A stretch of DNA of 12,969 nucleotides from a virus (Duplodnaviria > Heunggongvirae > Uroviricota > Caudoviricetes): positions 1-12,969 of the IMG/VR virus record IMGVR_UViG_2529292908_000006. The stretch is one strand, 5' to 3'. Each line of letters opens with the position of its first letter. The first letter of the stretch is position 1. Positions 1,369 through 6,396 of this stretch are shown here, one piece after another. The notes below the pieces were generated by a model. The model had not been told where the DNA came from. It saw nothing but the letters and a program-made list of their open reading frames with translations, and did not search any database. A program made the translations under genes and the position numbers.

Positions 1369-1444
1369 GCCGATATAGCTCAGTTGGTAGAGCAGCGCAT
1401 TCGTAATGCGAAGGTCGTAGGTTCGACTCCTATTATCGGCACCA
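1369..1444 (+). tRNA. thrW: tRNA-Thr, anticodon CGU, 76 nt with encoded CCA
   Basis: GCCGATATAGCTCAGTTGGTAGAGCAGCGCATTCGTAATGCGAAGGTCGTAGGTTCGACTCCTATTATCGGCACCA: acceptor stem GCCGATA/TATCGGC, D-loop AGCTCAGTTGGTAGAGC, anticodon loop with CGT at 1402-1404, T-arm GGTTCGACTCC. Sits directly downstream of proA. Confidence 0.93.
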
Positions 1445-5058: not shown

Positions 5059-5421
5059 TTAACGACCTGCTGCGCGGAGTTTTCCGTCAGGTTCACCGGC
5101 AAGAGTCAGTAACTGTCCCTGGTCTTCCTGCAGAATAGTCAGGCGACCACCGCGATTGACATACATCGGCGTTTCGGTGGTGTCTTCTTCGGAAATTTTC
5201 CCGCGGTTAGTCGGGCGAACATATGAGAGTTTGTGTTTGATTTTCACACGGTTCTCATCAAATGGTTCGATTTCCAGGTTGAGTGAGACCTTACCTTTGG
5301 TTTTCGTGTTCATCACACCGGAAGCGACTTCACTGAGAACTGCGCCGATTTTGGTTTCAAATACGCCGCCGTCCAGCTCCCCGATAAATGCCTGCACATC
5401 AGTACTGCGTTCGCTAGCCAT
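5059..5421 (-). CDS. yfdP: prophage early protein of unknown function, 120 aa, YfdP-like
   Basis: Start at ATG 5421..5419 (MASERSTDVQAF) with SD GAGGAG about 9 nt upstream. The ORF track extends to 5739, but the extension is Arg/Cys-rich, lacks an SD and overlaps a structured GC-rich segment, so I treat it as non-coding. Confidence 0.65.
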   Translation of the reverse strand: MASERSTDVQAFIGELDGGVFETKIGAVLSEVASGVMNTKTKGKVSLNLEIEPFDENRVKIKHKLSYVRPTNRGKISEEDTTETPMYVNRGGRLTILQEDQGQLLTLAGEPDGKLRAAGR

Positions 5422-5470
5422 TTTGCTGCTCCTCATCATATCGACCCTGCAAGGTCGGTTGGTTTCTCCA

Positions 5471-5557
5471 CAAAACAGAGAAGAACACCTGCGGTGACTG
5501 CCGCCCGGATGGATTGGGTTATGAGCCCGTCGTCCGGTGATGTTCTTCTCTGTTTTG
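5471..5557. other. long imperfect hairpin (19 bp stem, 3-nt bulge, 46-nt loop) inside a GC-rich non-coding segment; candidate structured RNA or regulated terminator
   Basis: caaaacagagaagaacacc (5471-5489) pairs with ggtg-atg-ttcttctctgttttg (5536-5557). Region 5440-5760 is open in several frames on both strands with no convincing start or SD. Confidence 0.4.
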
Positions 5558-5859
5558 TAAAAAGAGCGATACCAGCCGGAAGCAAGTGTACAAACTGGTA
5601 CCGCGAGGACTACACACAGCATAAAGTTGTGGTACCGGGTGCCTCCCGGTGCCTGGCGAAGGTTGCACACCAGGCGGGTGGGTATCCACAGAAGGTCGAC
5701 TGTCAGCCTCAACCTTAACCCGCGTGCGCTGAGCCGCATTCACCACAACGCTAAGGATTCTCTCTGGTTGAAAATACTTAGCTGTTATGTGCCTGTCTTT
5801 TCACCACTTCAGGCTCGGTGGTATCTTGGTGTTTTCATATAGCCAAGAAGGAAATAGTT

Positions 5860-6051
5860 ATGACCAAAGAAGAAAAAATTCTTTATTTATTCCAACTATC
5901 GGTTAAGACACACACTGCATATCAGACTGCTGCCATGACATCAGATAAAAATTACAGTACGTCAGAAAACCCGATAGACGACATAAGCAAGCTTTACGAT
6001 AAGTTCGAAGCACTACTCGATAAAAAGTTTGCTGAGGCTGGGCTTGAGTGA
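5860..6051 (+). CDS. small hypothetical protein, 63 aa, acidic and probably helical, AT-rich
   Basis: ATG at 5860 with SD AAGGAAA 8 nt upstream; TGA at 6049-6051. MTKEEKILYLFQLSVKTHTAYQTAAMTSDKNYSTSENPIDDISKLYDKFEALLDKKFAEAGLE. Antisense to the surrounding early-left operon; 3' end overlaps the convergent minus-strand ORF by 39 bp. Confidence 0.5.
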   Translation: MTKEEKILYLFQLSVKTHTAYQTAAMTSDKNYSTSENPIDDISKLYDKFEALLDKKFAEAGLE

Positions 6052-6219: not shown

Positions 6220-6396
6220 GTTTTACGCCCAAACGACTTCACAGTTATTGTTTAAAATCTGGACTTTCATTTCATACACCTGCTTTAACATGAGTGCCTA
6301 GTGGCACAACATGACTCAACGAATCATCCTGGACTTCATATGCCCCAGGCGGCTACTTCGTGGGCGTCCTGCCTGTTCGTTGTTTCTCTTGGGTAC

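Follow-up and report, generated by a model that had tools for sequence, protein, structure and literature searches.

A structured leader RNA upstream of yfdP in an SfV-like prophage: a candidate small RNA locus with a read-through hairpin

Introduction

Does the DNA directly ahead of yfdP in the early-left operon of an enterobacterial prophage encode a protein, or does it act as RNA? The question is raised by a 12,969-nucleotide (nt) stretch of viral DNA (IMG/VR record IMGVR_UViG_2529292908_000006; the window, to whose positions all coordinates refer), in which segment 5440-5760 of the minus strand lies between two convergent small phage open reading frames (ORFs) and yfdP. The current annotation of this element is a hypothetical or frameshifted protein or, in Escherichia coli K-12, the gene ymfH. 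A sequence-only reading had taken the segment for a non-coding structured RNA on the operon strand (the minus strand, on which folds are read unless stated otherwise) within the early-left unit upstream of yfdP, and this view is supported here. On balance, and with modest assurance, the segment is regarded as a non-coding leader at the head of the leftward early operon in an SfV-like prophage, composed of a small RNA (sRNA) gene and a hairpin that is made on read-through. Confidence in the architecture is high.

The order of the leader is fixed across relatives and includes, from 5' to 3', a 34-nt motif, a structured domain, a linker, a hairpin with a U-run, a big hairpin, the sequence GGAGAAAC, a small hairpin and a Shine-Dalgarno (SD) sequence (Table 1). 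The element belongs to a known kind, the prophage sRNA loci of the STnc100/PasD type. It differs from the described members in its early-left place, in its RprA-like 3' module, in its exchangeable cassettes and, above all, in the read-through hairpin with its tRNA-like arm.

Relatives of the leader were gathered by BLAST against phage records, by a scan for the loop motif of the big hairpin in one genome per species and in IMG/VR, by a second scan for the 3' arm only, independent of the loop, and by BLAST against complete E. coli genomes. Genuine copies occur in prophages of at least 10 enterobacterial genera (Escherichia, Shigella, Salmonella, Citrobacter, Enterobacter, Kosakonia, Leclercia, Mixta, Pantoea, Buttiauxella and others). 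Matches to the degenerate loop pattern outside the enterobacteria lack the arms and were rejected as chance. The module of terminator plus hairpin is present in 2491 of the 5426 complete E. coli genomes (46%), with up to 5 copies in each, and it always heads the leftward operon, regardless of whether the next gene is yfdP, an rdgC-like gene, an unknown gene or, in the deleted prophage e14, xis.

The big hairpin after the terminator

The big hairpin begins one base after the U-run of the terminator and is followed by GGAGAAAC, with no U-run of its own. Its arms, 5471-5489 and 5536-5557, pair as the sequence-only reading had described. The 19-base-pair (bp) stem with a 3-nt bulge drawn from them is one of two possible registers, the minimum-energy fold being instead a continuous stem of 20 bp, and the supposed 46-nt loop contains two more helices, making the whole a three-way junction. 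The 20-bp stem includes one U.G pair and can be extended to 25 bp into the preceding U-run. The third arm is variable, a 4-bp hairpin in the window and a hairpin longer by 25 nt in other genera. The big hairpin lies 3' of the terminator and exists only on read-through RNA.

The hairpin is real and not a product of chance. Region 5462-5566 folds with -51.2 kcal/mol, compared with -23.7 +/- 2.9 kcal/mol for 200 dinucleotide shuffles, none of which is as stable (z = -9.56), and the whole stretch 5425-5800 has a fold z of -6.86. Among 53 distinct sequences, 96.1% of the alignment cells form pairs (96.5% in the basal stem alone), a share that falls to 41-51% once the 3' partners are displaced by 1-3 columns. 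Double-sided changes occur at seven pairs, for example A-U/C-G in columns 10-118, A-U/G-C in columns 21-107 and G-C/A-U in columns 32-56, and none of 500 shuffles reaches the observed covariation score.

The covariation also bears on the strand. G.U cells that are possible only on the operon strand number 96, versus 30 for the opposite strand, and a covariance model of the hairpin (R1) scores 96-124 bits in sense and 33-47 bits in antisense. With R1, each locus has a single copy; the rest of the window, the early region of HK022 and the surroundings of canonical STnc100 have none. As far as could be found, the big hairpin is undescribed.

The terminator and the 3' ends of the RNA

The long hairpin had been offered as a candidate terminator, but the true intrinsic terminator stands just 5' of it. 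It has a 12-bp stem (-17.9 kcal/mol, z = -3.4) followed by UCUUUUU, and was skipped by the consensus scan because of its loop of more than 8 nt. Its stem has at least four unrelated sequences in relatives, beginning GGCGGUACCAG, UGCCCAUC, GGCGGUGAUCGG, CUGGCGGCCCGG and, in ST64B, GUCGGCGUCCGGC, and the U-run is retained throughout. Two resemblances were considered by eye and dropped: an ops element for RfaH in the stem sequence GGCGGTACCAGT, of which only the first 7 of 12 ops bases match and which is replaced in relatives, and a likeness to enterobacterial repetitive intergenic consensus (ERIC) sequences.

RNA 3' ends have been mapped by Term-seq in K-12 MG1655 (Adams et al., 2021; PMC7815308, supplementary files 1 and 3), which carries the related e14 element. 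The coordinates were transferred through a 16-nt offset to the K-12-type record, and the printed 61-nt strings were reproduced. Three minus-strand 3' ends fall in the leader. The end at 1201195 is the last U of the sequence GGUACCGCCCUUUUU, directly before ACAAAACAGA, and equals window position 5559. The end at 1201257 lies 4 nt past the closing helix of the structured domain, directly 5' of UGCUGUGUGU, and equals position 5622. The end at 1201423 is the strongest locally (read count up to 285136) and is the final base of the 34-nt motif, window position 5789; there is no U-run at this site. The e14 copy is thus transcribed on the minus strand in uninduced K-12, and its RNA terminates at the U-run, in agreement with the prediction from the comparison. 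The ends at 1201257 and 1201423 have low intrinsic-terminator scores and no Rho signal, and look like processing products or protected ends.

The structured domain and STnc100

The two local hairpins that had been noted in addition to the long one are real (CCGGGAGGCACCCGG at 5649-5635 and CCUGGUG..CGCCAGG at 5674-5652). Both are part of a separate structured domain upstream of the terminator and not of the big hairpin. The domain keeps its closing helix GUUGUGGU/ACCACAAC unchanged while at least seven unrelated inner cassettes of about 40 to 250 nt replace one another within it (sampled in the collected sequences L005, L006, L018, L116, L117, L120, L190 and others), and in place of the terminal hairpin CCGGG-AGGCA-CCCGG another cassette type has GGUGG-AGGCA-CCACC. 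Some relatives (L190, L136, L189) are without the domain yet retain the terminator and the big hairpin. In its build the domain looks like an exchangeable sRNA cassette.

The statement that no known RNA family could be recognised no longer holds, since the upstream half of the segment gives a full-length match to STnc100 below the Rfam threshold and the linker is identical to a part of RprA. The STnc100 match has a score of 39.5 bits (E 4.4e-7), the gathering score being 47, and covers model positions 1-206 of 206. At gathering thresholds the tRNA is the sole Rfam match in the window, and the STnc100 gathering score is reached by none of 15 homologous loci. The architecture of STnc100 is present, including the closing helix, internal hairpins, the CCGGGAGGCACCCGG hairpin, the linker and the terminator. 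Judged by this architecture the domain is a relative of STnc100; by the Rfam criterion it is not a member.

STnc100 and PasD, the latter from enteropathogenic E. coli (EPEC), are prophage-encoded, Hfq-associated sRNAs. With this STnc100/PasD type the element shares a closing helix around UGGUG...CACCA followed by GAAU, a single-stranded linker and an intrinsic terminator at the 3' side, and a prophage location; the CCGGGAGGCACCCGG hairpin is identical. The canonical closing helix is GCAUGGUG/CACCAUGC, from which that of the window differs by compensatory changes. Canonical STnc100 has different inner hairpins, a linker unlike RprA and no big hairpin after the terminator. It lies in the late operon, after stx2B or another moron (stx, tciA) and before esterase or holin/lysis genes, whereas the copy in the window lies in the early-left leader, between cI/pL and yfdP. 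PasD and STnc100 have been grouped together by structure (Zhu, Shabalina and Storz, 2026; bioRxiv 10.64898/2026.05.13.724894). If the leader is read as RNA, this family is extended from the late to the early lambdoid region and is linked to RprA.

An alternative pairing of CACCACAAC with GCUGUGUG was suggested by RNAalifold, from a poor alignment in which cassette types are mixed and several sequences are truncated. In window 5606-5633 the 3' strand of the closing helix, CACCACAAC, could pair with the downstream GCUGUGUG, which is similar to the 5' strand GUUGUGGUG. Such a pairing could possibly form a switch that exposes or hides the RprA-like seed described below.

The 34-nt motif is the upstream boundary of the conserved leader and is found in the window, in SfV, in e14 and, in variant form, in many relatives. 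Both stems of the pseudoknot as which it can be drawn are invariant. The reverse complement of the motif has TGgTATCTT, a possible extended -10 for the plus-strand ORF 5860-6051.

The RprA-like linker

The single-stranded linker between the domain and the terminator matches RprA, whose sequence was verified against annotated rprA, in 14 of 14 positions in the window (E 3.6e-4), in 16 of 16 in e14 and in 26 of 26 in phage LLS, where the identity extends into the 5' strand of the terminator stem (L005, 2370-2506). The exact 14-mer UGCUGUGUGUAGUC is present in 54 of 103 distinct leaders; other E. coli versions have the linker CAGCCACUGCUUUGG in its place. The leader of phage LLS matches the Rfam RprA model (RF00034) with 40.8 bits (E 5e-4), the gathering score being 70, and in the window the model has no match at E<=10.

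In RprA the UGCUGUGUGUAGUC stretch likewise stands directly 5' of a terminator hairpin. The stem of that terminator is different from the one in the window, and the 5' two-thirds of RprA, including the region that pairs with rpoS, are absent from the window. Processing of RprA yields an active 3' form of 47 nt, the start of which is just ahead of the shared stretch (PMC9262595), and the e14 3' end at 1201257 is placed as a cut yielding processed RprA would be. With seed, terminator hairpin and U tail, the stretch 5621-5559 (63 nt) is built in the classic manner of Hfq-type sRNAs, and the linker is likely to be the seed of a short 3'-derived sRNA of this extent. An sRNA had been among the candidates of the sequence-only reading and is the one closest to the evidence.

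By their sequences, RprA and the phage RNA family may share ancestry. RprA is possibly a domesticated piece of the phage family, or the phage may copy the processed form of RprA, a thought that is linked to the tRNA mimicry weighed below. By eye, RprA nucleotides 31-50 (GCAUGGAAAUCCCCUGAGUG) are similar to the 5' side of canonical STnc100 (GCAUGGUGAAUCCCCCUGUG).

Proposed course of transcription and processing

In a lysogen or early after induction, most transcripts would stop at the terminator. The stopped transcripts would be cut just 5' of the RprA-like stretch into a structured 5' RNA and an Hfq-type sRNA of about 63 nt, which would function as RprA does in its processed 3' form. Transcription past the terminator would produce the hairpin of 20-25 bp, which is most likely a processing site, with ribonuclease III (RNase III) as the obvious candidate. 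Cleavage there would split the sRNA from the yfdP-yfdQ-yfdR...xis-int message and would set the 5' end, the stability or the translation of that message.

The step assigned to RNase III is put forward with low confidence. The basal stem has the duplex that the enzyme calls for (about two turns, at least 20 bp, near-perfect), and similar arrangements are known. The E. coli leader of metY-rimP-nusA-infB, in which metY is the gene of tRNA-fMet2, has the same order of a stable RNA, a terminator with partial read-through, a long hairpin and a first ORF; cleavage by RNase III was reportedly demonstrated there by Regnier and Grunberg-Manago in 1989. An initiator-tRNA sequence is found in both, a real tRNA in the metY leader and in the window an anticodon arm only, inside the hairpin. 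In phage lambda, RNase III sites are known in the N leader and in retroregulation by sib. The N leader resembles the window in having a long duplex in the pL leader just upstream of the ribosome-binding site of the first gene, and sib resembles it in having an extended helix only on transcripts that pass the terminator. The lambda sites have no sequence similarity to the element, their structure is unlike its junction with a conserved apical arm, and no nut site or N protein was identified in the window.

Several observations weigh against this reading. The score for STnc100 is below threshold, and cassette types B and C have no STnc100 match at E<=1. The Term-seq ends come from the e14 copy, which is about 90% identical, and not from the prophage in the window. 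No sigma-70 consensus stands directly upstream of the sRNA at the scan threshold, the best candidate there being AAGACA-17-TATTTT (8 of 12 positions), and the RNA may rather arise by processing of the pL transcript, for which a promoter candidate lies at 6424-6397. Minimum free energies do not differ between sense and antisense, so that the strand is assigned from context, wobble counts and Term-seq. No variation is seen at half of the pairs in the basal stem, and recognition of a specific sequence is therefore as likely as recognition of a plain duplex. The RNase III step is argued from duplex length and analogy. The model assigns no role to the near-invariant arm that resembles tRNA-fMet.

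The initiator-tRNA-like arm

The arm at the tip of the conserved helix carries CGGGCUCAUAACCC, which is identical in 14 of 14 positions to the anticodon stem-loop of E. coli tRNA-fMet (pairwise E 9e-5). The tRNA sequence was validated against the annotated four-copy tRNA-Met of E. coli, which the C1-A72 ends and the three G-C pairs identify as the initiator. In 67 elements that were sampled through the 3' arm only, CGACGGGCUCAU is invariant (67/67); 54 of them keep the whole 23-mer, and 9 have CUCAUUC-CCC, with loop positions 37-38 changed. The GGG/CCC pairs are also invariant in alignment A3, partly by construction, as the scan pattern of A3 fixed those bases. In e14 the loop has decayed to UUAAUAA.

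Unlike tRNA-fMet, the arm has a C/AA internal loop in its stem, below the three G-C pairs. Neither ARAGORN nor the Rfam tRNA model takes the arm for a tRNA, and there is no tRNA match in 5300-5950 at E<=10. Downstream, near the start site, the CUCAU loop has an AUGAG partner in the yfdP-type context and not in others, and no partner sequence is conserved.

Alternative explanations

That the segment codes for protein, either the two-helix membrane protein YmfH or an N-terminal extension of YfdP through a 226-codon ORF (5739-5059), is suggested by the K-12 annotation: the e14 gene ymfH (L002, 3002-3313), with which the region shares about 90% identity, is annotated as a protein of 103 amino acids, and its translation has two hydrophobic stretches. 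The 226-codon frame into yfdP is open in both the window and SfV, and the ymfH clone of the ASKA set has a phenotype, as its overexpression is reported to trigger the toxin RcaT of retron-Sen2 (bioRxiv 10.1101/2020.06.22.160242). Yet the YmfH reading frame is not conserved. Window and K-12 differ by two separate 1-nt indels, and in the window codon 75 of the frame is a stop. When the frame is anchored on the conserved GTGGT (start) and GGAGAA (near the end), just 5 of 64 distinct relatives keep it open, with an anchor spacing of 1 or 2 modulo 3. An intact gene with changes at third codon positions had been named as the pattern that would speak for a protein; what is found is this poorly kept frame and stems that covary instead. 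PGAP labels the homologue in other strains 'hypothetical protein, frameshifted', and NCBIfam has no model for YmfH. Several frames are open on both strands, as had been noted, and the one of 226 codons is not conserved, the in-frame extension upstream of yfdP being open for 57 to 106 codons depending on the relative. The putative ORF has no SD, in line with the earlier remark that no credible one exists, and yfdP has its own conserved SD and ATG. Inner segments are swapped whole between relatives and the flanking helices are preserved. A protein is thus highly improbable here. Reading the element as RNA would drop the y-gene ymfH from the list of K-12 proteins and reinterpret the phenotypes of 'ymfH' clones; if ymfH makes no protein, the RNA may be the active agent in the RcaT trigger screen. 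It is very improbable, too, that the inverted repeat acts as DNA (a protein-binding palindrome, a cruciform or a recombination site) or as RNA of the opposite strand. A perfect inverted repeat of 19-20 bp covaries alike for DNA and for either RNA strand, the antisense folds as well, and model R1 also gives it a score. The inner helices and the tRNA-like loop, however, are correct only on the operon strand, to which the G.U counts and the much higher sense scores of R1 also point; on this strand the repeat abuts the terminator U-run, and Term-seq shows it to be transcribed.

Among readings that keep the RNA and assign it another function, a cis-acting antiterminator like the put RNA of HK022, which would let polymerase read through the adjacent and the downstream terminators, had been proposed from the sequence. 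Like put, the domain is a highly structured RNA near the start of an early operon, with a strong terminator directly after it; the early genes include no evident N-like protein, and downstream genes (xis-int in e14) need expression across the terminator. The proposal is nevertheless improbable: the best blastn match to HK022 20-32 kb has E 2.2 (put sites are unannotated in that record and have no Rfam model), the window has no second copy in its rightward operon, the domain is missing from L190, L136 and L189, which keep the terminator and the hairpin, and at least seven unrelated cassettes interchange. Termination is, moreover, seen in vivo in K-12, and the nearest relatives, STnc100 and PasD, are free-standing sRNAs. 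An immunity RNA like CI of P4 or C4 of P1, which would cause premature termination in trans on superinfecting genomes, is decidedly improbable. Transcription-termination-mediated, P4-like immunity was reportedly described in SfV by Roberts, Allison and Verma in 2007, and SfV has the element at 96% identity; the variability of the cassettes would fit immunity specificities, and the K-12 prophage produces the RNA without induction. The window, on the other side, has no match to C4 (RF01695) or isrK (RF01394), and k-mers of the leader RNA that are complementary to the rest of the window occur at chance level only. C4 and isrK score above their gathering thresholds in the rightward early operon of SfV (L007, 205-393, minus) and in L190 (3501-3689) and L117 (2538-2726), and isrK only, at the edge of the stretch, in ST64B (L003, 21-97) and cdtI (L006, 24-100). 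This rightward C4/isrK locus is the likelier seat and is probably that of the P4-like termination immunity of SfV. There is, finally, the view that the essential feature of the big hairpin is its copy of the initiator anticodon arm, with which the leader would present a decoy, a sensor or a binding site to some tRNA-fMet-recognising factor; through this factor, early-left expression would be controlled or protected. This view is compatible with the sRNA locus and read-through hairpin favoured here, not exclusive of it. The 14/14 identity includes the three G-C pairs that mark the initiator tRNA, the motif forms a 7-nt loop at the tip of a conserved helix, and CGACGGGCUCAU stays invariant when the surrounding helices covary or are replaced. 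The operator of thrS is a precedent, an mRNA leader hairpin near the ribosome-binding site that mimics the anticodon arm of tRNA-Thr; its ligand is threonyl-tRNA synthetase (ThrRS), and the tRNA copied is tRNA-Thr, whereas the arm described here copies tRNA-fMet. Candidate ligands are PIN-domain toxins of the VapC/MvpT type (Shigella, Salmonella), methionyl-tRNA synthetase and the P site of the 30S subunit with initiation factor 3 (IF3). These phages have Shigella, Salmonella and E. coli as hosts, and enteric VapC cleaves tRNA-fMet in the anticodon stem-loop (PMC4705866). This is countered by the negative tRNA searches and the departing stem, by the variant CUCAUUC class and the decayed e14 loop, by the want of a conserved AUGAG partner downstream, and by a multiple-testing discount, as the 14-mer was noticed post hoc. 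That temperate enterobacterial phages display such a copy as a working ligand or decoy, sensing or blunting attacks on translation initiation, is on this evidence unlikely.

Genomic setting and minor features

The segment had also been called GC-rich, which holds moderately, its 55.8% compared with 48.1% window-wide placing it in the top 10% of 321-nt windows. SfV holds the same 376 bases at 96% identity and without annotation. As thrW adjoins the prophage end, the prophage is considered SfV-like and inserted at thrW in the manner of Shigella phage SfV; CPS-53/KpLE1 is inserted at argW, and the insertion here is at thrW although the early-left genes bear yfd names.

Table 1. Positions of the leader elements and neighbouring features in the window
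Feature	Position	Strand	Basis or remark
tRNA-Thr (anticodon cgt), thrW	1369-1444	+	ARAGORN, Rfam; adjoins prophage end
yfdP (phrog_204), first gene 3' of the leader	5059-5434 including SD; ATG 5421	-	translation, PGAP annotation of homologue
SD of yfdP, GAGGAG	5434-5429	-	
Small hairpin CGACC-UUGCAG-GGUCG	5442-5457	-	fold; between big hairpin and yfdP SD
Big hairpin, three-way junction	5470-5558	-	20-bp basal stem (5558-5539 / 5489-5470), anticodon-arm-like helix, variable third arm
Initiator-tRNA-like arm CGGGCUCAUAACCC	5516-5529	-	fold; helix tip; three G-C pairs closing the 7-nt loop CUCAUAA
STnc100 (RF02076) match, full-length, sub-threshold	5557-5779	-	Rfam
Intrinsic terminator	5559-5604	-	fold; stem 5604-5593 / 5577-5566, U-run 5565-5559
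Single-stranded linker UGCUGUGUGUAGUC	5608-5621	-	equals RprA nucleotides 62-75
Structured domain	5626-5749	-	folds, Rfam alignment; closing helix GUUGUGGU (5749-5742) / ACCACAAC (5633-5626)
Conserved 34-nt motif ACCACCGAGCCUGAAGUGGUGAAAAGACAGGCAC	5789-5822	-	drawable as H-type pseudoknot, ACCAC/GUGGU and GCCUG/CAGGC
Small ORF, phrog_2605	5860-6051	+	phage family match
Small ORF, phrog_15476	6219-6013	-	phage family match
Likely pL, TTGACA-16-CATAAT	6424-6397	-	consensus scan; 11 of 12 sigma-70 consensus positions
Terminator of LexA-type repressor gene	6452-6433	-	
LexA-type repressor gene	7138-6464	-	farther upstream, same strand as leader

The stem of the small hairpin is GGCGG/CCGCC, GCCCC/GGGGC or CGCC/GGCG in relatives, most of which keep the loop GCAG, one class having UAC. 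The consensus scan flagged this hairpin as terminator-like on the plus strand. In 5437-5472 of the minus strand, GUG GAG AAA (AUG GAG AAA in other genera) stands at the 3' foot of the big stem and opens a short frame of 5-18 codons, which in the window ends in UGA UGA, overlapping the SD of yfdP. A leader peptide from this frame was rejected, the peptide being not conserved, the position of the stop inconsistent and an SD absent.

Upstream of the leader, the phrog_2605 and phrog_15476 ORFs are convergent with an overlap of 39 bp, and the pL transcript therefore runs antisense through the plus-strand gene before it reaches the leader. The region after pL is rearranged compared with SfV. In 6223-6291 of the minus strand, the homologue of SfV orf33 (98 amino acids in SfV, phrog_3195) is shortened to 22 codons, MLKQVYEMKVQILNNNCEVVWA followed by a stop.

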